Shown: piece by piece, positions 1 through 27,630 of the stretch
Layout: every line of letters starts with the position of its first letter
How positions within the stretch are numbered: position 1 is the stretch's first letter
DNA from: a candidate division WOR-3 bacterium UBA2202
GTDB taxonomy: Bacteria; Hydrothermota; 32-111
Length of the DNA: 64,000 nt
Direction of reading: 5' to 3'
Assembly: GCA_002327905.1 (NCBI GenBank)
Contig: DCUY01000067.1
Span: forward strand, 10,764 to 74,763
The notes under the pieces: model-generated
The model's database searches: none
What the model was told of the DNA's origin: nothing
The model's input: only the letters and a program-made list of their open reading frames with translations
Made by a program: the position numbers and the translations under genes

Positions 1-19
1 TAACAAGTATCAAGGAGGA

Positions 20-1531: not shown

Positions 1532-1537
1532 GGAAGA

Positions 1538-10617: not shown

Positions 10618-10629
10618 TTTCCCTCCTTT

Positions 10630-11838: not shown

Positions 11839-12743
11839 TACTGTCCGACATTGAGAAGAGGAGTCAGATTCTGGTCGAAAGGCATTATTACCACCTTTGT
11901 GTTATTTGAATTCAACACTTCCTTCAGATTCTGTATGTAGTACCACTGCAAATACTGTTTGTTTAGAGATTCGGATATTTTTTTCTGAGAGACTGCAATT
12001 CCCTCTGCTTCAATAAGTTTTCTCTCTTTCTCTCTCTGCTCCTTTTCTAAAACATAAACCATCTTCTGCGCATCCTGCTCCGCAGCTATTTTCTCGTCAA
12101 TCGCATTTTTTACCTTTTGAGGCAGATCTATATTCCTTAAAAGAACTTTATCGCATATAATGCCTTTTGCAGAAAAATTGTTATCCAGTTCTTCAAATAT
12201 GACATTGGTCAATTCCTCTCTCTTTAAAGAATATATTTCAGTCACATTGTACAGAACTGTGGCATTTCTTATGGCTGTCCTTATTGCCGGCCGCACAATC
12301 TTTTCCACATAATCCTGACCTATATTTTGGTAGACCTCGGCCGCTTTATCGCTTTTCAGCTGGTACCATACTGTTATATCAAGATTTATCTGAAGCCCGT
12401 CTTTTGTGAGGGATGTTATTCCATCATCTCCCTTTCTTACCCCCTCTTCCTGAGCCACTGACATTGTATAGTCTTGAGTCCTTACATTCATGGTCTTTAT
12501 CTCCACAAAAGGAAAGACAAAATGCAATCCGTTTGAAAGAACTTTTTTGTACACTCTGCCGAAAAGAACCTGCACACCCACTGACCCGGGCTGTACTATT
12601 CTGACAGTTGACGCAAGAAGCAATACTGCAATTATCACTGCCCCCCATGTCACCATCATTTTCTTGTTCATCGCAAATTTCGGATAATAGCGCGGAACCA
12701 AAACCAAGAGAGCTATTATTATAATTACTATCAGAAATCCCAT
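11838..12743 (-). CDS. SPFH/band-7 (prohibitin/HflC-like) membrane scaffold protein
   Basis: N-terminal TM helix followed by an SPFH core (GSVGVQVLFGRVYKKVLSNGLHFVFPFVEIKTMNVRTQ). C-terminal coiled coil rich in EQ and KER. Confidence 0.8.
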   Translation of the reverse strand: MGFLIVIIIIALLVLVPRYYPKFAMNKKMMVTWGAVIIAVLLLASTVRIVQPGSVGVQVLFGRVYKKVLSNGLHFVFPFVEIKTMNVRTQDYTMSVAQEEGVRKGDDGITSLTKDGLQINLDITVWYQLKSDKAAEVYQNIGQDYVEKIVRPAIRTAIRNATVLYNVTEIYSLKREELTNVIFEELDNNFSAKGIICDKVLLRNIDLPQKVKNAIDEKIAAEQDAQKMVYVLEKEQREKERKLIEAEGIAVSQKKISESLNKQYLQWYYIQNLKEVLNSNNTKVVIMPFDQNLTPLLNVGQ

Positions 12744-13349
12744 TTATTCCTCCTTGTTAAATTTTTTCAACACACAAGAAATATCATCGTACTTGAAGCC
12801 TTTTCTTGCAAAAAACGACACTCTCTTTTTTTCATCCGAATTCATAAACTTTTTTTTCAGCAATTCATTTATAATATCTCTCTCGTCATAGTCTTTCAGC
12901 CACTCCTCGATATTACGGATTTTCTCATCATCATTGAATTTCATTTTCATTTTGAAGAGTATTTCCATCTTTGAGTATTTTTTAGAATCGACGAGATATT
13001 CAAAATAATCCTTCATATATTTATCATCATTTAAGAAACCCATTTTTTTTATGTGCTCGATTAATTTTTTGGCGGCGGGTTTGTCCAGTTTTCTTTGATA
13101 CAATTTGTTATACAGCTCCTTCTCGGTATAATTTTTTTTTGAAAGAATATTCAGCAGATAATGTTTGTTTGATTCAAACAAATCCAGACTCTTTATTTTT
13201 TGAACAAATTCGTCGCTTATATCCATCCCATTAGTAATTTTCTCCTTCAGAAAGACATCTTCAAAGACGGAGAATGAGTATTCTCCGTCCAAAAAAATAT
13301 TTACTTTCAGCTTATTTTTCTTTGCTCTCTCTATTTTTGTTATCTTCAA
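12744..13349 (-). CDS. recX: RecA regulator RecX
   Basis: 201 aa basic helical protein. N-terminal [17 protein letters not shown] matches the RecX consensus. Lies directly downstream of recA. Confidence 0.6.
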
Positions 13350-14337
13350 TTGCTATTCCCATTGCTTTTCTTATTTTTCCTTCAATCTCATCAGCAACAT
13401 CTTTATTCTCTTTTAGAAACAGTCGGATATTCTCTCTTCCCTGTCCGAGCTTGTTGTTACCGTATGCATACCATGCTCCTGTCTTTTCAATTATATTTAA
13501 ATTGGAAGCCATATCCACAATTTCACCCTCTCTTGAGACTCCCTCTCCAAAATAAATAGAGACCTGAGCGCGCTTGAACGGCGGAGCGACTTTATTCTTT
13601 ACTACTTTGACCTCAATGATGTTTCCTATCTCTTCCTCTCCTGATTTAATTGATGTCACTCTCCTCACTTCCATTCTTATTGAAGAGTGGAATTTCAATG
13701 CAAGACCACCGGGAGTTGTCATAGGATTTCCGAATATGACTCCGATTTTGTATCTTATCTGATTTATAAAGACCACAGATGTCTTTGATCTGTTTATTAC
13801 TGCCGTCAGTTTTCTTAAGGCCTGCGACATGAGTCTCGCCTGAAGCCCCATGTGCGAATCTCCCATGTCTCCTTCTATTTCGGCCTTCGGAGTCAAAGCG
13901 GCGACAGAGTCGATGACAACAATATCCACACTGCCGCTTCTTACAAGCATTTCAGTAATCTCCAGAGCCTGCTCCCCTGTATCCGGCTGTGAAATATAAA
14001 GATTGTCAATGTCAACTCCGAGTTTCTGCGCATACTGCGGGTCAAGAGCATGTTCGGCATCAATGTATGCGGCTATGCCTCCGGCTTTCTGCGCCTGAGC
14101 GGCTATCTGAAGAGCGAGAGTTGTTTTTCCGCTTGCTTCAGCTCCGTAGATTTCCACAATTCTTCCCCTCGGAACTCCGCCGATGCCTAATGCCGCGTCA
14201 ATCGCAATAGAACCTGTGGAGATAATGTCTCCCGCCACATTCGGCCTCTCCCCCAATCTCATTACAGATCCTTTGCCATATTCTTTCTCGATCTGTTTGA
14301 GAGTGATTTCAAGTGATTTCATTTTGTTGTTATCCAT
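13312..14337 (-). CDS. recA: Recombinase RecA
   Basis: Walker [18 protein letters not shown]2 loop region [16 protein letters not shown], and overall RecA length and architecture. Confidence 0.95.
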
Positions 14338-14904
14338 CTATACCTCCTGATTTTTTTCGAATAAAGAAACATACTGCGGCCCGTTCTCTGAAAACCGCGA
14401 CTCATAAAGAGTTATTGAAGATATTTTATAAATCACAGAACCCGAGGAATCCGCTCTGCCTGAAACATACTCCTTCAAGGCGGATCCGCTCTCCTCATCC
14501 TTGATTCTTGCTATTGTTATATGAGGATTAAAGACTTTTCTGTCAAAATCTATATTTTTGTCTACAAGCCTTCCCCTTATGTCATTTGCCGTCTTCGCCA
14601 GTTCTTCCGTATTCACCAGAGCATAATAGAGAATTGAAGGAATATTATTCCTTGAAAAGAATGACATTCTGTCTCCGCGCACAGAAGATATTCCGAACGG
14701 CTGAGCCCTTATAATGCCTTCAAGGTTCGGAATCATTCTGTCCTCAACCTGCCCCAAGAATGCAATGGTTATATGCATGTTTTCAGGCTTCACCCAGCTG
14801 ATGCCCTGAAGCTGAAGATTGTTTTTCATTTTATGTTGCATCACCAAAAGTTCGTTTCTCAAATCTGTCGGAAGTTTGTATGCAATAAACAGACGTCTAC
14901 TCAT
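14338..14904 (-). CDS. thpR: RNA 2',3'-cyclic phosphodiesterase (2'-5' RNA ligase family)
   Basis: Two H-x-T-x motifs (HITIAFLG and HITIARI) in a 188 aa protein. Confidence 0.8.
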   Translation of the reverse strand: MSRRLFIAYKLPTDLRNELLVMQHKMKNNLQLQGISWVKPENMHITIAFLGQVEDRMIPNLEGIIRAQPFGISSVRGDRMSFFSRNNIPSILYYALVNTEELAKTANDIRGRLVDKNIDFDRKVFNPHITIARIKDEESGSALKEYVSGRADSSGSVIYKISSITLYESRFSENGPQYVSLFEKNQEV

Positions 14905-16090
14905 GTTGTACTCTCCTTAATAGGTTATATAAGGCTATTCCTGCGCTCTTCTCTCTGACAGAGTTCCTGTCTCCGGAGAATTCTTTTTTTACAGTCACAA
15001 TCTTTTCTTTATAGCAGGTCGAAATATATACAAGTCCTGTGCGCTTTTCTTTTGTCTCTCCATTTGGTCCTGCAATTCCTGTGACGGAGATTGATGCGTC
15101 AGTATTGAAGACACGGGTGACATTCATCGCCATTCTCTCTGAGACCTCTCTGCTCACTGCACCGTATTTTATAATGACCTTATCCTCAATCTTAAGAATC
15201 TTCTCTTTAATTTCATTTGAATAGGCTATAATTCCTCCTTTGAACACTCTGCTGCTTCCCGGAATATCTGTGAGCATTTTGCCTATCATGCCTCCGGTGC
15301 AGGATTCTGCAAGAGAGAGGGTCAATCTTTTTAATAAAAGAAGCTTCAGTAATTCCTCTTCAATTTTACAGCCGTACGGTATTACATTTTTCTCCGCAAA
15401 TTTTTCCTTTGCATATTCTATTAACTTCTTTTCTTTTGAAACGAGTGTGACACTTCCGTACGAAGGAAGGAAAGCAATTTTATCAATGTCAGTCTTAGTA
15501 AATTTTTCCGAAAGAGCGAGAAATATTTGCGACTCATACATGTCAAAGAGCTTCACTCTGTATTCCGCCTTTTTTCCTCTCAATCGCAGATTTTTCGAAA
15601 GTCTGTTCTTCATAATCCAGTCCGCCTCTTCAGGCACTCCGGGGAGAAGATAAATATCCGTGTTTTTCTCCTTGACAAACTGACATTGCGCAGTTCCTGA
15701 CAAATTCTCAATTATCACTGCTCCTTCAATTTTCTGAGATTGATGCGAAAGAAGATAATCCGATTTATTTTTCATTCTTCTCTCCGCAATTTTTCTCAAA
15801 CCGGGGTCATCCACAATTTTTCTTTTTAATGCCTTTGCAGTCCCTGCAATTGTCCTGTCGTCCGGAGTCGGGCCCAATCCTCCTGTCACGATTATCACAT
15901 TGGCTTTACAGATAAGCAATTTTAATGCTTCGGAAATCTCCTCTTCATTATCTCCGACCGAAATCTCCATTGAAACACGATAACCCATTTCAGTCAGCAT
16001 GCGCCCTATTGATGAAGCATTTGTATTTACAGTCATTCCTTTTAGAAGCTCATCTCCAACAGAGAGTATTGCGGCATTCAAAGTATCCAT
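14897..16090 (-). CDS. cinA: CinA family protein (MocF-like N domain + nicotinamide-nucleotide amidohydrolase PncC C domain)
   Basis: N-terminal AAILSVGDELLKG...IIVTGGLGPTPDD and C-terminal LSLAESCTGGMIGKMLTDIPGSS. Classical cinA-recA linkage. Confidence 0.85.
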   Translation of the reverse strand: MDTLNAAILSVGDELLKGMTVNTNASSIGRMLTEMGYRVSMEISVGDNEEEISEALKLLICKANVIIVTGGLGPTPDDRTIAGTAKALKRKIVDDPGLRKIAERRMKNKSDYLLSHQSQKIEGAVIIENLSGTAQCQFVKEKNTDIYLLPGVPEEADWIMKNRLSKNLRLRGKKAEYRVKLFDMYESQIFLALSEKFTKTDIDKIAFLPSYGSVTLVSKEKKLIEYAKEKFAEKNVIPYGCKIEEELLKLLLLKRLTLSLAESCTGGMIGKMLTDIPGSSRVFKGGIIAYSNEIKEKILKIEDKVIIKYGAVSREVSERMAMNVTRVFNTDASISVTGIAGPNGETKEKRTGLVYISTCYKEKIVTVKKEFSGDRNSVREKSAGIALYNLLRRVQHE

Positions 16091-16518
16091 ATTACAATCC
16101 TCAAAAGGGCATTTGCGGCAATTCCCGAGATAATGTCATCCATTATGATCCCTGCAGTCCCTTTAATGTTCTCTGATTTTCTTATGAAGAGAGGTTTCGC
16201 AATGTCCATATATCTGAAAAGAATAAACGCAGAGGCGAATATAAAAACCGAATGGGGCAAAAATAAAAGCGAAACAATCATTCCAATAAGCTCGTCCGCC
16301 ACAATTTTAGAATCATCTCCTTTGAAAGAACCCGCATACTCTATCGAAATGGAAGACAGAAGCAGAACATTTGAAAAGATCAGAAACATCTGAATATCGC
16401 CAAACCTCATAAAATAAGCAATGAGGCAGAAAAGGAGGGATACTATGGTTCCGCCGCCCTTAATATTGCCAATATAAAAACATGAAGCGATAATGTGATA
16501 TATTTTTTTAAAAATCAT
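16078..16518 (-). CDS. pgpA: Phosphatidylglycerophosphatase A
   Basis: 146 aa membrane protein. The N-terminal FYIGNIKGGGTIVSLL matches the PgpA family. Confidence 0.75.
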   Translation of the reverse strand: MIFKKIYHIIASCFYIGNIKGGGTIVSLLFCLIAYFMRFGDIQMFLIFSNVLLLSSISIEYAGSFKGDDSKIVADELIGMIVSLLFLPHSVFIFASAFILFRYMDIAKPLFIRKSENIKGTAGIIMDDIISGIAANALLRIVIWIL

Positions 16519-17246
16519 TTATACATCTCTGGAATTCTCTTCAATTCCCTGATGTCCTCTATCGAAAACAGATTTAAGTGGTTGAGAATGATTATTATCT
16601 TTTTTATTTTTCCATCTTTTATTCCTATTCCGGATACAAATGAAAGCAATTTTTCAGGAAGAAACGGCGGAATCTGTTTTATGTCAGTCTCTTTGAAGCG
16701 AGCAATTCCGACAAGATAATCCACATAGATTCCAACTCTGAGATCATCAATCTGAAGAATTATTATTGAACCGTCTTCTTTGCGGTCGTCTTTCATGCCG
16801 AATTTTTTTCTGAAATCAACAAGAGGAATAACTCCGTCCTTCATATTTGTTATTCCGAAAAACAGGTCGCTCTTCACTCCGACATCCAATGGCTTCTTAT
16901 ATTTTATTATCTGCCTCACAAAATCACTGTCAATTGCATATTCTTCATTCTTAAGAAGAAATGTCACAAACTCTTTTACCGAATCAGCATCCTCTTTTTT
17001 TTCTTGAGACTGATTCATGCGCCGAATATCGGCAATTTCAGATTTTACCTGCGACATTTCAATTTTCTTTTCTGCCTTCACCGGCTCCTTATGCTCAAGA
17101 TGCTCTGATTTCTCCTGTTTGGAAGCAATTTCAGGTTTGGACAGTTTCACTAAAGGTCCCTTTTCTTCAGACTTTTTAGGCTTGATCTTCTTGTCCGGTT
17201 TATCGTTCTGAAGAATATCCTGAAGGTCAATTTTCTTTTTCATCAT
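16515..17246 (-). CDS. CheW-like coupling protein with a Lys/Glu-rich N-terminal extension
   Basis: C-terminal CheW domain (EYAIDSDFVRQII...GVIPLVDFRKKFG...IIILQIDDLRVGIYVDYLVGIARF). The first ~90 aa are a K/E-rich low-complexity region. Confidence 0.75.
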   Translation of the reverse strand: MMKKKIDLQDILQNDKPDKKIKPKKSEEKGPLVKLSKPEIASKQEKSEHLEHKEPVKAEKKIEMSQVKSEIADIRRMNQSQEKKEDADSVKEFVTFLLKNEEYAIDSDFVRQIIKYKKPLDVGVKSDLFFGITNMKDGVIPLVDFRKKFGMKDDRKEDGSIIILQIDDLRVGIYVDYLVGIARFKETDIKQIPPFLPEKLLSFVSGIGIKDGKIKKIIIILNHLNLFSIEDIRELKRIPEMYK

Positions 17247-18072
17247 TTTCTCCGGTTAATTCTTTTAGCTTTTCTTCCGCTTTCTGAGCCCATCTGTTGT
17301 ATCTGTTCTTCTTTATAAGGTCATTAAGGGTCTTTATGCCCTTGTTTTCAAGGCCCGATTCAAAGAATGCTATTCCGAGATAATAATACGCCTCCATATG
17401 ATTGGGTCCGAGCTCAATGGTCTTGCGGAAGAATTTTATCGCGTCATCATACATCTCCCTGTCTCTATAAATAAGTCCAAGGTAAAAATTTGCATATATC
17501 AGCGACATTTTATCGTCAGTAGTCTTTAATACTGAAGTAAGATGCTCAATAGCCTCTCCAAATATTCCTTTTTTGAAACACACATATCCCAGATTGTTTT
17601 TTGCTATTGCATTATCAGGGTCAATCTGAAGAACCTTCTGAAATATTGACATCGCATCATCATACCTCTCCTTGTGAAGATATGCCCATCCCAAAAGCCC
17701 GAGAGATTTCACATCATTCGGGGCAAGACTCATTGCTTTTTCAAGTATTTCGACAGCATCATCATACTGCTCGTCAACCATGAAATTCCATCCCTTGTCT
17801 ATATATGTTGTCAAATCAACAGGAGAAATTTTCATTGACTGCACAAATGACTGCAGGCCCTCTTTGTTTATATTCGGATTCTTTATTCTCTTTGCCAGCT
17901 GTTTTATCCTCCCGTCAGCATGTTTTATAAAAGCATTCATTGATAAAATCTGCTTATAGACTTCCATAAGCTCGTTTTTTATATGCTCCTCTCCGTATTT
18001 TCCGGTATCAATTACACTCTCTATTCTGTCGAGATGAGCATCAATTTCCTTTTTTGCATCAGTCCATTTCAT
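17227..18072 (-). CDS. TPR repeat protein
   Basis: Multiple 34-aa repeats of the W-LG-Y / A---F---L---P-N type (LGWAYLHKERYDDAMSIFQKVLQIDPDN and others). Confidence 0.7.
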   Translation of the reverse strand: MKWTDAKKEIDAHLDRIESVIDTGKYGEEHIKNELMEVYKQILSMNAFIKHADGRIKQLAKRIKNPNINKEGLQSFVQSMKISPVDLTTYIDKGWNFMVDEQYDDAVEILEKAMSLAPNDVKSLGLLGWAYLHKERYDDAMSIFQKVLQIDPDNAIAKNNLGYVCFKKGIFGEAIEHLTSVLKTTDDKMSLIYANFYLGLIYRDREMYDDAIKFFRKTIELGPNHMEAYYYLGIAFFESGLENKGIKTLNDLIKKNRYNRWAQKAEEKLKELTGENDEKEN

Positions 18073-19102
18073 CTGTCAGCTCCTCTATCTTTTCAGAGAT
18101 TCTGTCTTTGTCCATTATAAAATCGACACTTCCCGTATCAATTGCGGCTTTCGGCATACCGAAGACTACTGATGAATCTTTTGATTCCGCTATGTTTGTT
18201 CCGCCCATTTTTTTTATTATGAAGACTCCTTCAGAGCCGTCCTTCCCCATTCCTGTCAAAATGACTCCTATAATTCTTTTTCTGAAGTATCTCACTGCGG
18301 AGAGCATCATTATGTCAGCCGCAGGTTTGACGGAATGGTACGGAGGGTCATCCGACAAATGTACAATTCCGCTTTCATCAAAAATCATGTGTTTGCCGCC
18401 CTGAGCGATAATACAGTCTCCGTTTTTCAAGCCGCAGTTTTCGTATGCTTCAAAAACATTCAAACCCGACATGGTGTTCAGTCTCTCGGAAAATGATTTT
18501 GTGAAACCGGCAGGCATGTGCTGGACAACTGCGACAGCAGCGTTCAGCTCCGGCTTTATGCGCGGTATTATCTCCATAAGGGATTTCGGTCCGCCCGTTG
18601 AAGATGCTACAGCGACAAGATTGACTGCATTTGTCTCCTGCTTTGCCTTGCCGCCCACCCTCTCGGCTACTGCAGAAGAAGATTGAAATAGTCTGCTGAT
18701 ATTTGATTTCAAAGCGCATTGCATTTTTTGAAGTATTTCATCCCTCTTCTCCGTGATGTCCAAAGATATTGAACCTGACGGTTTTTCCACTATATCAAAT
18801 GCTCCGAATTCAAGAGCTTTAAGAGCTATCTTGGAGCCTGCTTTTGAATACGCGCTCACTATGATTACAGGTACGGGCTTTATACGTAGAATCTGCTGAA
18901 GACTTATCAGTCCGTTTATCTTCGGCATTTCAATGTCAAGTGTCACAATATCAGGATCAAGAATCCTGAATTTTTCTATCGCCTCCGCTCCGTCTGCCGC
19001 TTCGCCCACTACCATGAATGCCTTGTCTGAATTGATTATGTCCTTCAATATCTGCCGCATCAACAATGAATCATCAACGACAAGAACTCTGTTGATTTTC
19101 AA
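18059..19102 (-). CDS. cheB: Chemotaxis response regulator protein-glutamate methylesterase
   Basis: N-terminal receiver (VLVVDDSLLMRQ...DIVTLDIEMPKINGL) and C-terminal methylesterase (VAVASSTGGPKSL...GMPKAAIDTG). Confidence 0.9.
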   Translation of the reverse strand: MKINRVLVVDDSLLMRQILKDIINSDKAFMVVGEAADGAEAIEKFRILDPDIVTLDIEMPKINGLISLQQILRIKPVPVIIVSAYSKAGSKIALKALEFGAFDIVEKPSGSISLDITEKRDEILQKMQCALKSNISRLFQSSSAVAERVGGKAKQETNAVNLVAVASSTGGPKSLMEIIPRIKPELNAAVAVVQHMPAGFTKSFSERLNTMSGLNVFEAYENCGLKNGDCIIAQGGKHMIFDESGIVHLSDDPPYHSVKPAADIMMLSAVRYFRKRIIGVILTGMGKDGSEGVFIIKKMGGTNIAESKDSSVVFGMPKAAIDTGSVDFIMDKDRISEKIEELTDEMD

Positions 19103-19578
19103 TATTGAATCTCCCCGAGTTTATATGATGTCACTTTAATCTTTCCTGTCTTAATTGTGAATTCGACCGACCTGCTGTAATCGCTCCCCGTGTCCTCAGC
19201 TGTCACAGGTATTCTGTTCTCTCTCAGCATTTTTTTTGCCATTTCAATATTTCTGTATCCTATTGATTCTTCAACATTTTTTATAAAAATGGAGAACATG
19301 TTGGCCCCTCCGACTACTTTTGCCTCCATTCTGTATTTTCTTGCTCCAAGCTGTTCCATCTCCATAATTAGATTGGACAGGCCAGTGTCGCAGTATTTGT
19401 ACGGATTAAAGAAAGCCTTGGAAAATACTTTGCTCGGCAGCATAAAATGTATCATTCCTCCTATTTTTTTTTCTCTGTCAAAGAGAGTTACCGCAACGCA
19501 GGAGCCGAGTCCTATCGTTTTAAGCACATCCTCTTCAAATGCTACATTGGCGTCAGCTATTCTGATGTTAATAATCAA
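19099..19578 (-). CDS. cheD: Chemoreceptor glutamine deamidase CheD
   Basis: 159 aa. The GLGSCVAVTLFD...GGMIHFMLPS signature matches CheD. Confidence 0.85.
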   Translation of the reverse strand: MIINIRIADANVAFEEDVLKTIGLGSCVAVTLFDREKKIGGMIHFMLPSKVFSKAFFNPYKYCDTGLSNLIMEMEQLGARKYRMEAKVVGGANMFSIFIKNVEESIGYRNIEMAKKMLRENRIPVTAEDTGSDYSRSVEFTIKTGKIKVTSYKLGEIQY

Positions 19579-20371
19579 TTTTTCTAAAGACCCTTTCCTT
19601 TCTGTTTATTGTTTCAAACATGTCTTTTACATAGCCCGTAAGAATTTCGACTTTTCCGAGGACAAGATATCCGTTCTGCTTCAATATTTTATGAAAGTTT
19701 GATATAATGCTCTCCTGAAAATCCTTTGAAAAATATATCAGAATGTTTCTGCATATTATCAAATCAAATTTCCCCATTGTAAGAAGGGAGTCGCTCTCCT
19801 TTATATCCATAATTATAAAATCCACATTTCTCTTTATATCTTCATCAAGAATGTAATGCTGTCCGCTCTTCTTAAAGTATCTCGCCACCTCAGAATGCTT
19901 CAGCTCCATAAAAGAGTAATCGCTGTAAATTCCTATTTTTGCCTTTTCAATGGCGTCTGCGTCAACATCTATCCCCACTATTTCATAATCTCCGTCAGAG
20001 TTTCTGAAAAAATTCTTCAGTATCATTGAAAGAGTATACGGCTCTTCTCCTGTGGAGCATCCTGCGCTTAAAATGCGCACCTTCTGATTTTTCCGCACAA
20101 TGTCTTTGAATATTACATCTCCAAGAAAATCAAATGTCTCTCTGTTTCTGAAAAATCTCGTCACATTTATTGTAAGAGTGTCTTTCAGCTTCATCATCTC
20201 AGCTTGATTGTACCGGAGATATTCAAGATACTCTCTGTAGCTCTTCTGGTCAGTATATCTCATTCTGACAGCTATTCTTCTCTTGAACGGCCTCTCTTTG
20301 TATAGGTTTCCGTCTATGCTGATATGCTTCTTTATATAATCAATAAGAAACTGATAATCATTGTCAACCAT
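19568..20371 (-). CDS. cheR: Chemotaxis protein methyltransferase CheR
   Basis: TRFFRNRETFDFL N-terminal helical domain, and the SAM-binding motif VRILSAGCSTGEEPYTLSMIL. Confidence 0.9.
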   Translation of the reverse strand: MVDNDYQFLIDYIKKHISIDGNLYKERPFKRRIAVRMRYTDQKSYREYLEYLRYNQAEMMKLKDTLTINVTRFFRNRETFDFLGDVIFKDIVRKNQKVRILSAGCSTGEEPYTLSMILKNFFRNSDGDYEIVGIDVDADAIEKAKIGIYSDYSFMELKHSEVARYFKKSGQHYILDEDIKRNVDFIIMDIKESDSLLTMGKFDLIICRNILIYFSKDFQESIISNFHKILKQNGYLVLGKVEILTGYVKDMFETINRKERVFRKIDY

Positions 20372-21962
20372 TTCTTACGGTCTCCAGAGTGCGTTTCAAA
20401 ATTTCATTGTCAGGCTGAAGTTCAAGAGCCTTTTCCCAATAAACCAAAGCATCCTGCTTTTTTCCCTTTCTATAGCGGAGATTTCCGATTTTATACAGTA
20501 TGTCAAAATCCGCTTTTCCGATATTGACTATGTCTTCAAGCACTTGTTCCGCCGCGTCAAAATTCTTTTCATTGAAATAATATTCCACTAAAGCTTTGAA
20601 AGGAACAGGGTCGGAATTTGAAGTCTCGACCGCTTTTTTAAACATACTCTCTGCGGACTCAATTTTTCCGCTTATTGTGTATATTTCTCCTAAATTGTAA
20701 TAAACCTGCCATATTGTATTGTCCTGTTTTATAAGTGAAAAGAGAATATTTGTAGCTTCGCTCACCATTCCGTTTTCAAAATATACAAGCGCAAGAAAAA
20801 ATGATGCGTATTTCAGGTTTTGGTCTATTTTTAACGCCATTTTAATTCTCTCTTCTGCCTCTGAGAAGAGATTCATTTTGAATGAGAGTATTCCATAATT
20901 AGCAAGAATCTTGGCATTCTCAGGTTCGATCTTCAAAGCTCTCTCATAAAATTCATCCGCCCTTTCGTAATTATTCAGCCTCTCATAAGTGAGAGCTATA
21001 TTGTTGAAAAGGGCGATATTTCCGATTCCAAGCTTCAAGAGCTCCTCAAAAGATTGAAGAGCCTTCTCATAGTCTTTCAATCTGAAGTAAATAAGCCCTA
21101 TATAGAAATATGCTTTGATATTGGTTTTGTCTATCTGTATTATATGCCTGAATTCCCGCAGAGCCTCTTCATACATTTCAGTCAGAAGAAATGCAAGCCC
21201 TAAATTGTGGTGCTCCTGCACTTTTGTCTGAATGTCTGTGGACATCTCTATCTGCTTCTCTTCTCCTGAATAAATGTATCCCACTTTCAGAAGAGTGTAT
21301 ATGGCCTTTCCCGTTTCATATCTTCCCAAAACTGATTTGTCAAAGATCTCTCTTATTGAGAGCCTGTTATTTACAAGAGAATAAATGTATCTCTCGTCAT
21401 CCTCCTGAAGAGTCTTCTCATCCTTTATGCTCGTCTTTACCAGAATGGTCTTCTCATTCGGAAGTTCTTTCTCAATTATCGACCACTCATCGATTTTTCT
21501 CGCCTCCTCAAGAAGTATATCATCCGCTTCAAGCTCCACAGTGATGGTTTCGGATACAGGCGGAATATCCGGTTCAAAATTGAAGAACCCGTCTTTCCAT
21601 GTCAGAAGAGTGAATATTGAATCTATTATTTGTTTTTTTATTCTGTCCACCAAAATATCAAGAGTTATGTATCCCATCTCTATAAGAAGGTCTCCAAGCC
21701 TTTTCAGCCCCTTCATCTCCTCTTGAGCCTCCAAAGCCTTCTCCAAATTCTCTTTTGAAATATCTCCGTACTTCACAAGCAGATTGCCAAGCCTCTCTTC
21801 CCTGTTTACTATTGAGCAGTAAATAATCTTTCCGTCCCTGAAGAAAATATCACCAAAATTCTTCTTGTCGGAAACACTCAAAACTCCGGTCTTCCTTCCT
21901 AAAGAAAGCAGTTGAATCACATCAGGAAGAGACGCCTCTTTGAGGTTTCCCCGTATGCTCAT
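20364..21962 (-). CDS. DUF4388-like N-terminal domain fused to a TPR-repeat array
   Basis: The N-terminal ~100 aa (GNLKEASLPDVIQLLSLGRKTGVLSV...GDIFFRDGKIIYCS...ERLGNLLVKYG) fit the DUF4388 pattern. The C-terminal half holds at least seven TPR motifs. Overlaps cheR and the upstream ATPase gene. Confidence 0.55.
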   Translation of the reverse strand: MSIRGNLKEASLPDVIQLLSLGRKTGVLSVSDKKNFGDIFFRDGKIIYCSIVNREERLGNLLVKYGDISKENLEKALEAQEEMKGLKRLGDLLIEMGYITLDILVDRIKKQIIDSIFTLLTWKDGFFNFEPDIPPVSETITVELEADDILLEEARKIDEWSIIEKELPNEKTILVKTSIKDEKTLQEDDERYIYSLVNNRLSIREIFDKSVLGRYETGKAIYTLLKVGYIYSGEEKQIEMSTDIQTKVQEHHNLGLAFLLTEMYEEALREFRHIIQIDKTNIKAYFYIGLIYFRLKDYEKALQSFEELLKLGIGNIALFNNIALTYERLNNYERADEFYERALKIEPENAKILANYGILSFKMNLFSEAEERIKMALKIDQNLKYASFFLALVYFENGMVSEATNILFSLIKQDNTIWQVYYNLGEIYTISGKIESAESMFKKAVETSNSDPVPFKALVEYYFNEKNFDAAEQVLEDIVNIGKADFDILYKIGNLRYRKGKKQDALVYWEKALELQPDNEILKRTLETVRNG

Positions 21963-23633
21963 TTACACCTCAAACTCGACATACAATCTGTCATGTTCGT
22001 TAACCCATTCCTTAATAAGCTTGGAAGTGTCATATTCGCTCTTTTTCCTTGAGGAGATTTTTTTTGATTCTGTCTGAGGAAATACTTTGTTGATTGCTTC
22101 AACTGTCGGTGCGCCGCCGGGAGAAAAAGATGCGAGCTCCGCAAATTTTTCATCAACGCTTGAAAGCGGAGTTTCTATGGCATCAAGCATATAATTCATC
22201 AGAAAATCATTTGTCTGAATACCTGCTCTTGCGAACATACTCTTGTAGACATTTTTTTTGATAAAAAGAGAGGTCGGCTGAATATTGTAGGATTGAAATT
22301 TATTAAGGAAATTCAACAGCTCTCTGTCATCAATGCTGAATTTTCTGTACATTGAAATCACTTTAGGCACATTATTCATAATAATATTTTTTAGGACAAG
22401 CTTGTTGGCTTTATTCTCAAAGAGTAAATCAAAATCATCTATCAAAATTATGCTGAGCTCATCCATATATTTCATGACATATGAATTGTTCACTGCTGAA
22501 TCGATATTGGTTTTGTCCAATAGAATGATTCTCTTATCCGAAAATCTGTTGCAGATGCTGTTTAAGAGATGCGTCTTTCCTGTTCCGTTTGTTCCTGTCA
22601 ATATAACTATTTTATCGGCATTTTCACTATTCAGTATTTCTGTTATTTTGTTGTATGCCGACCTGTTCGTCGCATCCGTTATGAAGGATTCATAATTCAT
22701 CGAAAGCTTTGTACTGCTTCTGAAAACTCTGAGGTATTTAATTTTATCTTTTAAAAATTCTATCTTTTCCCGCAGTTCAACCAGTCTGTCAGGGTCAAAA
22801 AGCATATCCTCTATCTCTCTTGATTCCTTCTTAAACTCCTTGACATTAAGAAGCCCGTATTCCTTATGGAGTTCAACAAGATTCTTCACCTTCTCCGTAT
22901 ATTCGGAGAACTCGCTCTTAATCAATGAAATGTCATTCACATTTATTATATTCTTTAGTCTCTCCACATTGAAGCCCTTCATCTCCCAAATATAGAGTTT
23001 TTCAATATACTCGTCTCTTTTTTCCCCCTCTCTCAGATTTTCCTGCACTCCGGCCTCTCTCTTTACTTCTCTTATAAAATCGGCAAAATCCTTGACCGGA
23101 TTCTCTTCCTTCTTTTCCGGGCTGAAGGTGAGATCAAAAAATTTCCCTGCCATCAGAGTGTTTTTTGTCCTTAAATCTATGGTTATATCCTCCAGACTTT
23201 TCTTTGTAGTGACCAGAAGATATGATGTTGAATGAAGATTGTTGATTATTTCGAGGATTATGTCATGAACAACAGTATTCTTCTCCACCTGCTCAAAATT
23301 TTCTATTATCAAAAGATTTGAATAGAGAAGGAATCTCTTATACTTCATCAAAGCATTGAATTTCATCATCTCAACCATCTCTTTAAGATCAATTCTGAAA
23401 ATATAAAAATCAGGAAATGCATTTGATATTGACTCTGCCATTTTGTCGGCAAATATTTCTCCAGACTGGTCATCAGAACGAACTACAATTACTCTTGAAG
23501 TCAATGTGCCTGTGCTTACTGCATAAGAGAGCTCGGATTTCAGAAAAGCATTTTCCGGAAGTTCAGTGTCGCCGCTGTGCTTCTGTCTGGTTCCGAATGT
23601 CTCCTGAAACTCCTTTATATCATTTTCATTCAT
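21963..23633 (-). CDS. Tandem DnaA/Hda-like AAA+ protein: N-terminal degenerate copy plus C-terminal intact ATPase module
   Basis: C-terminal module has Walker A ILTGTNGTGKTHLLNSICN, Walker B SIILIDDFDLLFENK and a sensor-like stretch, closely resembling the DnaA/Hda AAA+ core. N-terminal residues ~40-170 repeat the layout (FLLYSNLLIIENFEQV...YLLVTTKKSLEDI) but lack a P-loop. TGA/ATG junction with mglA. Confidence 0.5.
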   Translation of the reverse strand: MNENDIKEFQETFGTRQKHSGDTELPENAFLKSELSYAVSTGTLTSRVIVVRSDDQSGEIFADKMAESISNAFPDFYIFRIDLKEMVEMMKFNALMKYKRFLLYSNLLIIENFEQVEKNTVVHDIILEIINNLHSTSYLLVTTKKSLEDITIDLRTKNTLMAGKFFDLTFSPEKKEENPVKDFADFIREVKREAGVQENLREGEKRDEYIEKLYIWEMKGFNVERLKNIINVNDISLIKSEFSEYTEKVKNLVELHKEYGLLNVKEFKKESREIEDMLFDPDRLVELREKIEFLKDKIKYLRVFRSSTKLSMNYESFITDATNRSAYNKITEILNSENADKIVILTGTNGTGKTHLLNSICNRFSDKRIILLDKTNIDSAVNNSYVMKYMDELSIILIDDFDLLFENKANKLVLKNIIMNNVPKVISMYRKFSIDDRELLNFLNKFQSYNIQPTSLFIKKNVYKSMFARAGIQTNDFLMNYMLDAIETPLSSVDEKFAELASFSPGGAPTVEAINKVFPQTESKKISSRKKSEYDTSKLIKEWVNEHDRLYVEFEV

Positions 23634-24232
23634 CTTTTATTATCATACTTCCTTGTCAATTGCTTTATCACCGAAAACATCGCGTCTTTCAATGTCTCAA
23701 TCACCCCGGTTCCCTTTGTTGCAATAGCTTCAAAAGCCTTCCAATCGCTCCTTATCTGAAGAGCGCTCTTAATTACATTTGTGTCAACTGCATTCGGCAG
23801 GTCTCTCTTATTATACTGAATCACCAAAGGCATTGTCTCTATGCTGAATCCGTGCTCCTTAAGATTGATGGCAAGATTTTCAAAAGATTCTATGTTATCC
23901 TCCATTCTATCCGCCTGAGAATCCGCTACAAAGACAACTCCGTCAGCTCCCTGAAGAACAAGTTTTCTTGTAGAGTCGTAATATACCTGTCCGGGAACAG
24001 TATAGAGCTGAAATTTCGCATTGAAATTTCCTATTTTCCCCACATCAAATGGAAGAAAATCAAAGAAGAGCGTCCTGTCCATCTCAGTTGCAAGAGATGT
24101 CATTTCCCCTCTCTTTTCAATTGGAATTTTGCTGAAGATATACTGCAGGTTGGTTGTCTTGCCCGACCTTCCCGGTCCGTAGTAAACAACTTTGCAGATA
24201 ATCTCTTTTTTTGCGTAGTTTACCAATGACAT
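23630..24232 (-). CDS. mglA: MglA-family Ras-like small GTPase
   Basis: Near-collinear with Myxococcus MglA: KVVYYGPGRSGKTTNLQYIF (P-loop), TLFFDFLP (switch I), YTVPGQVYYDSTRKLVLQGADGVVFVADSQ (switch II, with intrinsic Arg and Gln), IQYNKRDLPNA (NKxD). Start set at MSLVNYAKKEI (24232) by alignment to MglA N-termini. The ORF-track start at 24268 is also possible. Confidence 0.9.
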   Translation of the reverse strand: MSLVNYAKKEIICKVVYYGPGRSGKTTNLQYIFSKIPIEKRGEMTSLATEMDRTLFFDFLPFDVGKIGNFNAKFQLYTVPGQVYYDSTRKLVLQGADGVVFVADSQADRMEDNIESFENLAINLKEHGFSIETMPLVIQYNKRDLPNAVDTNVIKSALQIRSDWKAFEAIATKGTGVIETLKDAMFSVIKQLTRKYDNKR

Positions 24233-24239
24233 AATTACC

Positions 24240-25343
24240 TCAATCTCTGAATGTGTTATTGAAAGCATCGCCTTCGTTTGACTCTATTCCTCTCAGTTTC
24301 AGCTTGAATTCGTCAACATTAGTTACTGACTGCAATGCGTCGTCATATGATATTATTCCTGACTTATATAAACGTATAATGGATTGATCAAAAGTGTGCA
24401 TCTGGTACTGCTGACCCTCTTCTATGGCTGACGGAATAAGAAGAGTCTTTATCGGGTCAAGAAGATAATCCTTTATTGTAGGGGTGTTAATCATCACTTC
24501 GGTGGCTGGCACCCTGCCCTTTCCGTCAACTCTCGGAAGAAGCCTCAATGAGAGAACTCCCACAAGAGTGGTCGCCAGCAAAACTCTTATATGTTGCTGT
24601 TGATGAGGAGGATAGAATGAAAGTATTCTGTTTATAGTCTCTGAAGCATTCAAAGTGTGCAGTGTTGACATCACAAGATGTCCCGTGTCAGCCGCTTTGA
24701 TTGCGACATCCATTGTATCCATATCTCGAATCTCTCCCATCAGAATAATGTCCGGATCCTGCCTCAGCACATGCTTTAAGGCATTTTCATAAGAGAATGT
24801 GTCATTTCCCACCTCTCTCTGCGAAATAACGGATTTTTTGTCTCTGAAGAGATACTCAATCGGGTCTTCAATCGTAATGATATTTCTGGCTGCATTTTCA
24901 TTTATGTATTCAATCATTGCCGCAAGAGTTGTTGATTTTCCGCTTCCGGTTGTTCCTGTGGTGAGTATCATTCCTCTCGGCCTCATAACGACCTCTTTTA
25001 ACACCGGAGGCAGATTGAGCTCGTCAATTGTCTTTGCGGATATGGGGATTGTGCGCATTGCAATCGCAACACTTCCCCTCTGAAGATAAACATTGACCCT
25101 GAATCTTGAAAGACCGGCGACTCCTATTGCAAAGTCTATTTCTTTTTTGGCAGTGAATTCATCCTGTTGCTCCTTATTCATAATCTTCAATGCAATCTTC
25201 CGCAATTCATCAGGACTCATCGGCTCGTCTTTTACAATGTTCAGCTTCCCGTCAATTCTAAGAATCGGAGGAGTGCCTGCCTTAAGATGCAGATCTGATG
25301 CTCCGTCCTTAACCATTTTTTCAAGCAATGATTTTAATTCCAT
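24240..25343 (-). CDS. pilT: Type IV pilus retraction ATPase PilT
   Basis: 367 aa. N-terminal GASDLHLKAGTPPILRIDGKL, Walker A GTTGSGKSTTL, Asp box and His box (TLHTLNASETINRIL). PilT-type length, with no long N-terminal domain. Confidence 0.9.
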   Translation of the reverse strand: MELKSLLEKMVKDGASDLHLKAGTPPILRIDGKLNIVKDEPMSPDELRKIALKIMNKEQQDEFTAKKEIDFAIGVAGLSRFRVNVYLQRGSVAIAMRTIPISAKTIDELNLPPVLKEVVMRPRGMILTTGTTGSGKSTTLAAMIEYINENAARNIITIEDPIEYLFRDKKSVISQREVGNDTFSYENALKHVLRQDPDIILMGEIRDMDTMDVAIKAADTGHLVMSTLHTLNASETINRILSFYPPHQQQHIRVLLATTLVGVLSLRLLPRVDGKGRVPATEVMINTPTIKDYLLDPIKTLLIPSAIEEGQQYQMHTFDQSIIRLYKSGIISYDDALQSVTNVDEFKLKLRGIESNEGDAFNNTFRD

Positions 25344-25353
25344 ATTCTCTCCT

Positions 25354-25914
25354 TTAATTTACCCTCTCTACATATTCGCCTGTTCTTGTGTCTATTTTAA
25401 TTTTATCTCCAAGCCCTATAAACAAAGGCACAGTGACTTTAAGTCCGGTTTCACAGACAGCAGGTTTGCTTCCTCCTGAAACAGTGTTTCCCTTTATGCC
25501 AGGTTCAGTCTCTGTTATTTCAAGTTCTACAAAAAACGGAACCTCTATGTCCATAACCCTCTGCTCCACAGAGAGAAGCATTACCTCCATGTTTTCTTTA
25601 AGATAATATTCCTTTCCCTGCAAAGCCGCTTCATCCATTGAAATCTGTTCGTATGTTTCAACATTCATAAAAACATATTCACCCTGCTCCTTGTAAAGAT
25701 ACTGATAAGGATTTCTCTCAAGCCTTATTTCGTCAAGGGATTTTCCAGAATTGAATGTGATTTCCACTACATTGTTGTTTTCAAGATTCCTCACTTTTGT
25801 TCTAACAAATGCACCGCCCTTACCGGGTTTCACATGCTGAAAATCCACGACAAGATACAATTTCCCTTCAACCGTAAATGCAAATCCTTTTCTGATGTCA
25901 GCTGTTGTTGCCAT
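25354..25914 (-). CDS. efp: Elongation factor P
   Basis: 186 aa. KPGKGGAFVRTKVRNL contains the conserved modified-Lys loop. Three OB-like domains. Confidence 0.9.
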   Translation of the reverse strand: MATTADIRKGFAFTVEGKLYLVVDFQHVKPGKGGAFVRTKVRNLENNNVVEITFNSGKSLDEIRLERNPYQYLYKEQGEYVFMNVETYEQISMDEAALQGKEYYLKENMEVMLLSVEQRVMDIEVPFFVELEITETEPGIKGNTVSGGSKPAVCETGLKVTVPLFIGLGDKIKIDTRTGEYVERVN

Positions 25915-25915
25915 C

Positions 25916-27565
25916 TTACCTCCGCTCTTTTTCTTTATCTTTTTCTTTTCTTTGGTTTATTATTTTAACCCAGTCATTGAAACTTGCTTTTGCAATGTAG
26001 GTTTGATCTCTCTTTGTCTCAGGCTTATCCTGTTTTTCGTCATGCTTCTCTTCTTCTCTCTCTTTAACAGTATTGTCTGAAGTCTTTGAATCTTCTTTTT
26101 TTTCTATTAATTTTGAATTTTCTTCTTTCTCTTCAGAAGCATTCTCCTGAACCTCGCTCTTTAAAATCTCGTCTTTCTCATCATCCTTCGTCTCTTCCCT
26201 CTCTGCCTCCTTTGCCTCTTCTTTTTCTATTTTAGAATCTTTTTGATTAAAATCATAATTGACTGCAGGAATCTCCTGCTTGGAAGTTTCGTCAAGTTTA
26301 TCAGCAAAATCGGAAGAAGGAGTTTCTGACATAGCAGTTCTGTCGGCGTATTTCTCCTCTGCGTCTTTGAATTCCTTTACCGTCATATCCTCTGATGACA
26401 GACTCTTATTGAGACGCTCAATGAATTCCGTCCGGCTTTTATTCTTCTTTTGCTCCTCTTCCTTGACAGTGTCAATATTGAATTCCTGTTTTGCTATTTC
26501 TTCATTTAAGAATCTAATCTTCTCTGCGTATTCCTCGCTCTCCGGATTATGTCTTAATAGCATTTGATATATCTCTATTGCCTTCTCGTATTTCTTCTGT
26601 TGAATATAAATCAATGCCATCTCTTTTGAATAAAAGAGCACTTTCTGCTTTCCCGGAAGGTCAAAAGGCACTACGGGTTTACCGCTGTCTGCCTCTTCCT
26701 TTTTCTTTGGTTTCGATATGTTGAAGTCCACTGAAGGATTTATGTACTTTGATTCATCAAGCATCTCTGTCTTTGATTCTTCTTTTGAGTCTTCCTTCAT
26801 CTTTTCTTTGGCTGTCTCTTTGATTTTCTCGGTGGATTCTTTTTTTTCTGCGGTCTTTTCTTCAGCAGTATGCTTCTCGGGGACCTTATTCTCTTTTGCT
26901 TCATCAGGTTTTGATTCTTTCGGATGTGATTCTTTTTCCTGTTTATTCTCTTTTTCCGCCTCTTTTATTTCAGATTCCTTTTTATCAGAATCGTCATCAA
27001 ATGTAATGAGGCTTGAGGAGTGCTGTATTATAAAATCATCAATATCGCGCCTCTCCTCTTTTGCGCTTTTAGGTTTATCATTCTCTTCTTCCTCCTTCTT
27101 CTTTTTCTTCAATTCCTCGCTTCTCTTTCTCTCCTTCTCCTGCTCATCAAGACGGCTCTTAAGAATTTTAACTTCCCTCTTTGCATTATCATTTGAAGGA
27201 TCAAGAAATAAAACATTATCGTAAAGTTTGTATGACTCTTCGAGATTTCCCTGGGTTTTTTTTATCTCCGCCAGAGAGAGAACGGCAGGAAGATTCTGAG
27301 GGTCCTTTGATATGACCTTTTCAAAAAGCTTTGAGGATTCATTGAAATTTCTTTTCTCTTTATAAGCCTTTGCCATAATAAGAAGAGCGGATAGATTGTC
27401 CGGAGCATACCTTAGCCCTTCCTTTATAACTTCAATGGTCTCATCTATCATTTCAAGTTTCAGATAGATATTGCCCAGTTTAATAAAAGCTTTGGACTTC
27501 GGATTCTTGGCAATCTCTTCCAATAATTCCTTAATCTCTTGTTCGAAACTGTTATATGAAGCCAA
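25916..27565 (-). CDS. TPR protein with long Lys/Glu-rich disordered regions
   Basis: N-terminal TPRs (LGNIYLKLEMIDETIEVIKEGLRYAPDN...). About 150 aa of K/E/D low complexity, then an internal TPR (ALIYIQQKKYEKAIEIYQMLLRHNPES), then another K/E-rich tail. No signal peptide. First gene of the long minus-strand operon. Confidence 0.6.
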   Translation of the reverse strand: MASYNSFEQEIKELLEEIAKNPKSKAFIKLGNIYLKLEMIDETIEVIKEGLRYAPDNLSALLIMAKAYKEKRNFNESSKLFEKVISKDPQNLPAVLSLAEIKKTQGNLEESYKLYDNVLFLDPSNDNAKREVKILKSRLDEQEKERKRSEELKKKKKEEEENDKPKSAKEERRDIDDFIIQHSSSLITFDDDSDKKESEIKEAEKENKQEKESHPKESKPDEAKENKVPEKHTAEEKTAEKKESTEKIKETAKEKMKEDSKEESKTEMLDESKYINPSVDFNISKPKKKEEADSGKPVVPFDLPGKQKVLFYSKEMALIYIQQKKYEKAIEIYQMLLRHNPESEEYAEKIRFLNEEIAKQEFNIDTVKEEEQKKNKSRTEFIERLNKSLSSEDMTVKEFKDAEEKYADRTAMSETPSSDFADKLDETSKQEIPAVNYDFNQKDSKIEKEEAKEAEREETKDDEKDEILKSEVQENASEEKEENSKLIEKKEDSKTSDNTVKEREEEKHDEKQDKPETKRDQTYIAKASFNDWVKIINQRKEKDKEKERR

Positions 27566-27601: not shown

Positions 27602-27630
27602 ATTATAATTAATTTTTTTTATAGTGTCAA
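27602..27630 (-). promoter_or_regulatory. Sigma-70-like promoter (TTGACA-17-TATAAT) for the long minus-strand operon
   Basis: The reverse complement reads TTGACA CTATAAAAAAAATTAAT TATAAT. The -10 element ends about 36 nt upstream of the ATG at 27565. Confidence 0.45.

Follow-up and report, generated by a model that had tools for sequence, protein, structure and literature searches.

A predicted group 1 MglA GTPase encoded beside pilT and a chemosensory gene module in an uncultured WOR-3 bacterium

Results

The mglA gene and its junction with pilT

A stretch of 64,000 nucleotides (64 kb; hereafter the window) from contig DCUY01000067.1 of the candidate division WOR-3 bacterium UBA2202 (assembly GCA_002327905.1) carries, on its minus strand, a gene for an MglA-type Ras-like GTPase between pilT, which encodes a type IV pilus retraction ATPase, and a block of genes for an AAA+ protein, a PATAN-domain protein, and chemosensory proteins. 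The original prediction, made from the sequence alone, had placed an mglA gene here without naming the strand, 7 nucleotides (nt) after pilT, and had taken the short distance as an argument for coregulation. The open reading frame (ORF) is real; it runs from an ATG at 24232 to a TGA at 23632-23630 and encodes 200 amino acids (aa). The pilT gene lies directly upstream, and the 7-nt gap proved exact. A GAGG Shine-Dalgarno sequence for mglA overlaps the TGA stop codon of pilT (24242..24240). Public gene callers use a longer mglA start at 24268, giving 212 aa (P0029) and an overlap with pilT. This longer form is disfavored and probably wrong; the ATG at 24232 is preferred because alignments with Myxococcus xanthus MglA and other homologs start at the first residue of the 200-aa protein and because of the GAGG ribosome-binding site.

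The upstream gene is, at the subfamily level and as judged from its sequence, that of a PilT/PilU-family ATPase, with PilT and PilU left as a joint assignment. Its best relative among solved structures was Thermus thermophilus PilT (5fl3; 1.8e-110), and the PilT structures 5fl3, 2ewv, and 6ojx together spanned 1e-110 to 1e-94. The host is an uncultured member of the WOR-3/Stahliibacteriota-like group. The nearest relatives of its MglA, at 81-82% identity, came from candidate division WOR-3 metagenome-assembled genomes (loci L001 and L002), and relatives of the AAA+ protein included one from a "Candidatus Stahlbacteria" metagenome-assembled genome (77%). Identical genes were also present on the metagenome contigs JGI 3300035454 Ga0394088_062771 (88.5 kb) and ENA ERZ27315067. 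The GC content was about 38%.

Identity and catalytic motifs of MglA

The ORF almost certainly encodes a group 1 MglA sensu stricto, to judge from its matches and motifs. In phmmer searches against all PDB sequences, the best matches were M. xanthus MglA (2.2e-70) and T. thermophilus MglA (1.9e-66), and the next-best family, Arl1, followed at 7.8e-07. Residues 1-192 aligned with residues 1-191 of M. xanthus MglA, with 110 of 192 positions identical (57%). Group 1 is defined by an Arg beside the G2 Thr together with the motif TVPGQ, and groups 2-5 have Thr and GTPGQ (Wuichet and Sogaard-Andersen 2015, PMC4316618). In the window protein, R53 adjoins the G2 residue Thr54 within TEMDRTLFFDF (D52-R53-T54), and TVPGQ, the G3 motif, occupies residues 78-82. 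DRT and TVPGQ were present in every relative compared. In MglA, Thr78 replaces the Asp of the Ras G3 motif and Gln82 is catalytic (PMC4316618, PMC3000849), and R53 and Q82 have been described as the intrinsic arginine finger and the catalytic glutamine, respectively (Miertzschke et al., PMC3199381).

These results bore out two parts of the original prediction, namely, very high conservation with the Myxococcus protein, which is far beyond chance, and the presence of the switch II glutamine (Q82 in TVPGQ). A third part was corrected. The intrinsic arginine had been located in the sequence GPGRSGKT, where the arginine is R22; the catalytic arginine is R53 in DRT, which is also present. The P-loop, G19-PGRSGKT26, fits the pattern GxxxxGK[ST] and keeps G21. 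Residue 22 of M. xanthus MglA is Leu and corresponds to the position of Gly13 in Ras (PMC3000849). Of the 80 MglAs compared from related loci, 33 had GPGRSGKT, 13 had GPGRCGKT, and 9 had GPGRGGKT. The first variant occurred in Gemmatimonadota MglAs with two or three adjoining Roadblock genes, and the other two occurred in Desulfobacterota loci, most with an adjoining MglB gene. R22 is therefore read as a common lineage variant of Leu22, since GPGR[SCG]GKT is frequent, including at loci with an adjacent MglB gene. A special catalytic or GTPase-activating protein (GAP)-replacing role for R22 was rejected, as 33 of the 80 MglAs share GPGRSGKT and many of their loci keep MglB.

SofG is an MglA paralog with terminal extensions. 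The view that the window protein is a SofG-like paralog or belongs to another Ras-like family (Rup, Rag/Gtr, or Arf) could draw on its best Pfam match, Arf (1.2e-09), and on a subthreshold match to Gtr1_RagA (21.3 bits; cutoff, 22); both matches are explained by the lack of an MglA-specific model in Pfam. This view is effectively refuted and has a negligible probability, as residues 1-192 align with the M. xanthus protein (57% identity) without an N-terminal extension, every group 1 motif is present, and Arf-family structures scored about 64 orders of magnitude worse. With the 200-aa start, the protein also lacks an extension of the SofG type. The original prediction had named best matches to non-MglA Ras-like families (Rup or RagA-like) as evidence against itself; the best matches were to MglA, and the database neighbors in UniRef and NCBI were named "gliding-motility protein MglA." SofG has been mentioned as an MglA homolog that positions PilB/PilT (PMC4316618).

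A neighbor-joining tree built from group 1-like sequences only placed the window MglA among group 1 sequences that included M. xanthus MglA. It grouped with the proteins of L001, L002, and L010; the sister group was a small clade from MglB-MglA-MglB-PATAN loci, followed by Gemmatimonadota. M. xanthus MglA and the protein of a canonical WOR-3 mglB-mglA locus (L041) were placed elsewhere. The MglAs of M. xanthus and T. thermophilus (PDB 6h17, 5ymx, and 3t12) have the same length as the window protein, align with it end to end, and share G21, D52-R53-T54, L55/F56/F57/F59, TVPGQ82, and NKRD. They differ from it in having Leu rather than Arg at position 22 and in their genomic setting: the canonical arrangement is an mglBA operon, whereas the window mglA has no adjoining mglB and is instead flanked by pilT and by genes for a DnaA-like AAA+ protein, a PATAN-TPR protein, and CheR, CheD, CheB, and CheW. 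The assignment extends the MglA family to the uncultured WOR-3/Stahliibacteriota-like group, an incremental step because close relatives are already annotated as MglA.

A long run of tightly packed genes

The mglA gene belongs to a run of 19 co-directional genes spanning 17 kb (27565..10195). In minus-strand order, the run includes genes for a 549-aa TPR protein, efp, pilT, mglA, the AAA+ gene (product, AAA556), the PATAN-TPR gene, cheR, cheD, cheB, a gene for a 281-aa TPR protein, a cheW-like gene, pgpA, cinA, ligT, recA, recX, and genes for SPFH and DUF401 proteins (coordinates of the features discussed here are given in Table 1). All 18 junctions were at most 12 nt long or overlapping. The distances were 10 nt between efp and pilT, 7 nt between pilT and mglA, -4 nt (ATGA) between mglA and the AAA+ gene, 0 nt between the latter and the PATAN-TPR gene, and -4 nt between cheW and pgpA, with overlaps continuing from the PATAN-TPR gene through cheW; the cinA-ligT and ligT-recA junctions were likewise at most 12 nt or overlapping. 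Translational coupling across this part of the run is suggested by the ATGA overlap of mglA with the AAA+ gene, the 0-nt gap to the PATAN-TPR gene, and the overlaps through cheW.

The only strong promoter-like site found for the run was a candidate sigma-70 promoter 37 nt upstream of the start of the first TPR gene. A consensus scan of the minus strand of the run found no intergenic terminator-like site, and the within-gene matches were uninformative. An internal promoter or terminator that would split pilT from mglA was not supported, as matches lay within genes only. The 7-nt spacing is compatible with cotranscription. It says nothing specific about pilT and mglA, since housekeeping genes of the run lie equally close together, and it reflects either the compactness of the genome or membership in a very long operon. 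The argument from tight spacing to coregulation was thus weakened by the equal packing at all 18 junctions, and what stood of it was modest support from the conservation of the pilT-mglA adjacency in WOR-3 relatives.

Table 1. Coordinates and supporting matches of the window features
Feature	Coordinates	Strand	Remarks
Candidate promoter of the run, TTGACA-17-TATAAT	27602..27630	-	12/12 match to sigma-70 consensus; consensus match only
549-aa TPR protein with low-complexity region	25916..27565	-	First gene of the run
efp	25354..25914	-	Housekeeping gene 10 nt upstream of pilT; arrangement kept in close WOR-3 relatives
pilT, PilT/PilU-family type IVa pilus retraction ATPase, 367 aa	24240..25343	-	TIGR01420, 462.5 bits (cutoff, 319.1)
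pilT-mglA spacer GGTAATT, 7 nt	24233..24239	-	Between pilT stop and mglA ATG
mglA, predicted group 1 MglA Ras-like GTPase, 200 aa	23630..24232	-	G19-PGRSGKT26, D52-R53-T54, L55/F56/F57/F59, T78-VPGQ82, NKRD
AAA556, 556-aa tandem AAA+ protein of DnaA/Hda clade	21963..23633	-	ATG overlaps mglA stop (ATGA)
PATAN (DUF4388) protein with inserted MshEN motif pair, then about eight TPRs, 532 aa	20364..21962	-	DUF4388, 2.1e-36
MshEN motif 1, RLGNLLVKYGDISKENLEKALEAQ	21723..21794	-	Motif definition from PMC5013675
MshEN motif 2, RLGDLLIEMGYITLDILVDRIKKQ	21630..21701	-	Motif definition from PMC5013675
cheR methyltransferase	19568..20371	-	Pfam
cheD	19099..19578	-	Pfam
cheB (REC plus methylesterase)	18059..19102	-	Pfam
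281-aa TPR protein	17227..18072	-	Conserved position in module
243-aa CheW-domain protein	16515..17246	-	90-aa N-terminal extension
PilB-type pilus assembly ATPase (T2SSE plus MshEN)	43756..45447	-	Both cyclic di-GMP motifs intact; 19 kb away

Conservation of the pilT linkage and of the downstream module

The pilT gene was adjacent to or near mglA in six WOR-3 lineages (L001, L002, L010, L084, L085, and L086). The order was the same in L001 and L002, and L001 has pilM-pilN-...-pilQ (pilMNOPQ) 2 kb further upstream. In L084, whose MglA is 75% identical to that of the window, pilT adjoins mglA, as it does in L010 (62%), where the gap is 206 nt. A gene for a 58-aa DUF2273 protein lies between the two genes in L085 (62%), and in L086 (58%) biotin carboxylase and TMP-TENI genes come between, with pilT 2 kb upstream of mglA. 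At the related non-WOR-3 loci compared, no PilT ortholog was found directly upstream of mglA. The linkage is lineage specific and persistent, and it therefore gives modest support for a functional connection. As a separate observation, a T2SSE-family ATPase gene (at about 13250-14200) lies 2.7 kb downstream of mglA at the mglB-mglA loci of Desulfobulbia/Desulfurivibrionaceae (L061, L062, and L065-L067); its product is about 31-32% identical to the window PilT, a recurrent link between MglA and a secretion or pilus ATPase in an unrelated phylum.

The block that starts with mglA is conserved more widely than the pilT linkage. Its order is mglA, the DnaA/Hda-like tandem AAA+ gene, the gene for the PATAN-(MshEN)-TPR protein, cheR, cheD, cheB, a TPR gene, and cheW, and full synteny was found at the WOR-3 loci L001, L002, and L081-L086. 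About 35 Gemmatimonadota loci, with MglAs at 58-62% identity, carry mglA followed by genes for a 631-aa protein with two Bac_DnaA domains, a PATAN-TPR protein, CheR, CheD, CheB, CheW, and a TPR protein. The combination of DnaA-like, PATAN-TPR, cheR, and cheB genes was present in 27 of the 57 loci with at least 7 kb of sequence downstream of mglA, and all 27 were from WOR-3 or Gemmatimonadota. Group 1 MglA was already known in Gemmatimonadetes, and PATAN genes near mglA/mglB had been noted earlier (Makarova 2006, Wuichet 2015), occasionally for group 1 MglA (PMC4316618). No literature description was found of a fixed mglA-AAA+-PATAN/MshEN-TPR-cheRDB module or of the WOR-3 variant without Roadblock genes; the word "chemotaxis" does not occur in PMC4316618.

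Pfam scans of window ORFs of at least 90 aa found no CheA, CheY, or methyl-accepting chemotaxis protein (MCP), the chemosensory set consisting of CheR, CheD, CheB, and CheW. The Gemmatimonadota module loci have CheW-CheY-CheA-CheC/X genes upstream of mglA. Locus L003 (1-10000) and its equivalents carry, upstream of mglA, genes in the order CheW-CheY-CheA-CheC/X-TPR (905 aa)-PATAN (325 aa)-TPR plus Roadblock (354 aa)-Roadblock (113 aa)-MglB-like (157 aa); such clusters place a complete kinase core and three genes of the Roadblock type beside MglA, with no MCP seen in the 1-10000 stretch. In the WOR-3 locus L086, the TPR gene is followed by AAA_22-CheW-MCP-CheW (16897-20503), whereas the window has a single CheW-like gene and then pgpA; the lineage of the window has thus apparently lost an MCP from the module. 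In the M. xanthus Frz system, CheR corresponds to FrzF, CheB to FrzG, and CheW to FrzA/B. A functional link of Frz to MglA/MglB in M. xanthus has been reported (PMC3441718). As there, chemosensory proteins are tied to an MglA switch in the window, where they are physically clustered with mglA; M. xanthus frz and mglBA, by contrast, are separate loci, and the window lacks CheA, CheY, and MCP and has CheD. Counterparts of RomR, RomX, FrzX, and FrzZ were not identified either, RomR and RomX not having been searched for.

The main rival to a reading in which MglA acts on type IV pili is that the protein is a genuine MglA that lies beside pilT by chance, the genome being compact, with pilT merely sharing a housekeeping-rich transcription unit and the module controlling something other than pilus retraction, such as cell polarity in general, cell division, or a different surface machine. 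We consider this alternative unlikely, though it deserves serious weight. It accounts for the uniformly short or overlapping junctions (18 of 18) and for the presence of efp, pgpA, cinA, ligT, recA, and recX in the same run; it also fits the occurrence of the same module without pilT in Gemmatimonadota, the biotin carboxylase and TMP-TENI genes that intervene in L086, and the lack of pilMNOPQ near the locus in the window. It fits less well with the retention of pilT-mglA down to 62% MglA identity while the genes further upstream differ, and MglA and PATAN both have documented functional ties to type IV pili.

The tandem AAA+ protein

At the module loci, the tandem AAA+ gene always came directly after mglA. 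Relatives of AAA556 were annotated as "DnaA/Hda family." Its C-terminal domain resembles DnaA domain III (T. maritima DnaA 2z4r, 4e-15; TIGR03420 Hda, 1.9e-14) and contains a Walker A motif, GTNGTGKTH (347-355), and a Walker B motif, IDDFD. An AlphaFold2 model (pLDDT, 81) showed alpha/beta AAA+-like domains at residues 28-167 and 324-503 and a conserved helical linker at residues 183-305. The N-terminal domain (28-167) has no Walker A motif in the lineage of the window, and the L085 and Gemmatimonadota orthologs keep two intact Bac_DnaA domains. Unlike DnaA, whose domain III the C-terminal domain matches, AAA556 has neither domain I nor the DNA-binding domain IV, and its tandem AAA+ domains are joined by a family-specific helical linker. 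That linker, with invariant F183, F186, W216, and P281, was the best-conserved part of the protein across phyla.

A Foldseek search with the model returned p97/Cdc48-type tandem AAA+ proteins (E values of about 1e-10; TM scores of 0.22-0.32), which is consistent with two AAA+-like domains and nothing more specific. Direct sequence homology between AAA556 and the Gemmatimonadota tandem DnaA protein was not borne out, the BLASTP match being weak (3e-06; 22% identical residues across the linker and Walker A). Because the direct similarity is weak, the case for orthology of the WOR-3 and Gemmatimonadota AAA+ proteins is built on their position and architecture and on the intermediates L085 and L086. 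A literature search for MglA, MglB, and DnaA together gave nothing relevant to a link between MglA and a DnaA-like protein.

The PATAN-TPR protein, cyclic di-GMP motifs, and PilB

The PATAN-TPR protein matched DUF4388 with 125 bits and, over its MshEN region, NF053729 with 45.2 bits (cutoff, 38). Its two MshEN motifs are separated by a 7-residue spacer (5 residues in VcMshE), and position 11 of motif 1 is D. The insert is a putative cyclic di-GMP-binding site. Both motifs were present in the L001 and L003 orthologs, and the L005 ortholog matched the search pattern for the first motif. The PATAN regulators of cyanobacteria (PatA/PixE/PixG) share the DUF4388/PATAN domain with the window protein, and proximity of PATAN genes to mglA is known. 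The window protein differs from them in that its PATAN domain carries an inserted tandem MshEN pair and is followed by TPRs, without a REC domain, and in holding a fixed place in the mglA-AAA+-PATAN-cheRDB module.

The genome encodes a type IV pilus motor. A PilB-type assembly ATPase is encoded elsewhere in the window (Table 1), and its MshEN motifs lie at 45438..45367 and 45351..45280. Since PilB and the PATAN-TPR protein each carry an MshEN motif pair, cyclic di-GMP could have both as targets. In Synechocystis, PilC and the N-terminal domain of PilB are binding partners of PATAN domains, and combinations of PATAN with GspE_N (MshEN) have been recorded (bioRxiv 10.1101/2021.06.11.447907). By analogy with this binding, the PATAN-TPR protein may serve as a pilus-motor adaptor. 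A protein with GAF and HD_5 (HD-GYP-type) domains, a possible cyclic di-GMP phosphodiesterase, is encoded on the plus strand at 58634-59779, and a similar GAF-GAF-HD protein is encoded near the module in WOR-3 locus L086 (1886-3520).

Roadblock proteins and the nucleotide state of MglA

Several searches were made for an MglB gene. No Robl_LC7 match was found by Pfam in window ORFs of at least 90 aa, and tblastn with five Roadblock queries gave no match in the window. An iterated two-round Roadblock/MglB hidden Markov model (HMM), run with filters off on window ORFs of at least 40 aa, gave zero matches at E values of up to 10; the same model gave zero matches at 10 of 10 related WOR-3 module loci. 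A hidden MglB in the window was rejected on these three lines of evidence. At the Gemmatimonadota module loci, two or three Roadblock genes lie upstream of mglA at a distance of at most 3 kb, accompanied by genes for PATAN, TPR, CheC/X, CheA, CheY, and CheW proteins. A canonical mglB-mglA pair is present at the WOR-3 locus L041.

The window MglA retains G21 and the MglB-contacting beta2 patch L55/F56/F57/F59. The retention of G21, R53, Q82, and this patch predicts a hydrolyzing, GAP-responsive GTPase rather than one locked in the GTP-bound form. A Ser or Ala at position 21 combined with loss of mglB marks the Bdellovibrio-type MglA, which is predicted to be GTP locked (PMC3983030); the window MglA keeps G21. 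The alternative that the window protein is an orphan MglA of this kind, independent of MglB and permanently or mostly GTP bound as a static polar landmark for pili, appears improbable. It would explain why the unfiltered Roadblock HMM was empty in the window and in the 10 WOR-3 loci while Gemmatimonadota carry two or three such genes, and Bdellovibrio provides the precedent of an MglA acting without MglB through a TPR partner (PMC3983030). The Bdellovibrio protein, however, has Ser21, whereas the window protein keeps G21, R53, Q82, and L55/F56/F57/F59; moreover, the genome could carry an MglB gene at another site, another WOR-3 lineage (L041) has a canonical mglB-mglA pair, and CheR, CheB, and CheD suggest adaptive, switchable signaling. 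The Bdellovibrio bacteriovorus system, with its TPR partner Bd2492 and the cyclic di-GMP receptor CdgA in the same hub, resembles the window in having no nearby MglB, in its TPR and cyclic di-GMP-type proteins, and in its link to type IV pili; it differs in the S21 of its MglA and in lacking a Frz system, whereas the G21-bearing MglA of the window is encoded beside cheR, cheD, cheB, and cheW.

Proposed role of the module

The reading that we favor, with moderate confidence, is that the module-linked MglA is a chemosensory switch acting on type IV pili. MglA would alternate between a GDP-bound and a GTP-bound state by means of its own R53 and Q82, and a Frz-analogous chemosensory pathway, together with cyclic di-GMP, would set its nucleotide state or its location. 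MglA-GTP and the PATAN-TPR adaptor would then direct where or when the motor ATPases PilB and PilT act, and the AAA+ protein may regulate MglA or be regulated by it. An action of MglA on type IV pili through a TPR partner is known in Bdellovibrio (PMC3983030), and two further reports describe stimulation of type IV pili by MglA through a TPR effector, SgmX, in Myxococcus (PMC7519303, PMC7668184). The original prediction had invoked an MglA-SgmX-type IV pilus axis with a different gene set. No SgmX ortholog was identified, no SgmX sequence having been compared; the window encodes three TPR proteins (549, 532, and 281 aa), and TPR content alone does not amount to orthology with SgmX. The conserved neighbors of mglA, left unmentioned in the original prediction, are the genes for the DnaA-like AAA+ protein, the PATAN-TPR protein, and CheR, CheD, CheB, and CheW.

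Several observations weigh against this reading. The 7-nt spacing is uninformative, with unrelated housekeeping genes packed equally, and Gemmatimonadota keep the module without pilT. No Roadblock/MglB GAP was found in the 64 kb, where RomR and RomX were not searched for, and the window has no CheA, CheY, or MCP. The Synechocystis PATAN regulators bound PilB, not PilT, so that an adjacency to pilT in particular lacks a protein-level precedent.

A broader interpretation, which we regard as doubtful, is that the cluster is a supermodule for polarity and chemosensing, shared between phyla and not described before, in which the AAA+ protein is a dedicated MglA partner (a regulator, remodeler, or effector) and whose WOR-3 form is free of Roadblock GAPs and wired to PilT. 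If this were so, MglA cycling would be driven by an ATPase and cyclic di-GMP rather than by MglB. The module found in two phyla, with three Roadblock genes in Gemmatimonadota and none at the WOR-3 loci, offers a natural experiment on the regulation of an MglA that has an intact catalytic site and no adjoining MglB gene, and it nominates the AAA+ protein, the PATAN-TPR protein, and PilT as candidate MglA partners. The fixed module and its Roadblock-free form are, at the level of gene content and order, a comparative-genomics lead rather than a demonstrated system.

Other features of the window

The plus-strand gene at 3415-6900 encodes an unusually long SecA (1,161 aa), in which the match to the DEAD motor-domain profile (290 positions) stretches from residue 5 to residue 508, implying an insertion of about 200 aa. 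A 445-aa ThyX, encoded on the plus strand at 8861-10198, contains two Thy1 stretches; its flavin-dependent thymidylate synthase domain has apparently been duplicated in tandem or fused. Between about 48000 and 58000, the GC content falls to 0.31-0.34; here lies a cluster for polysaccharide biosynthesis and export, which may be a horizontally acquired island. The cluster contains genes for glycosyltransferases, a Wzx-like flippase, Wzz/GNVR, and Poly_export/SLBB proteins, as well as large ORFs without Pfam matches, including those at 51113-52507 and 54579-56909.

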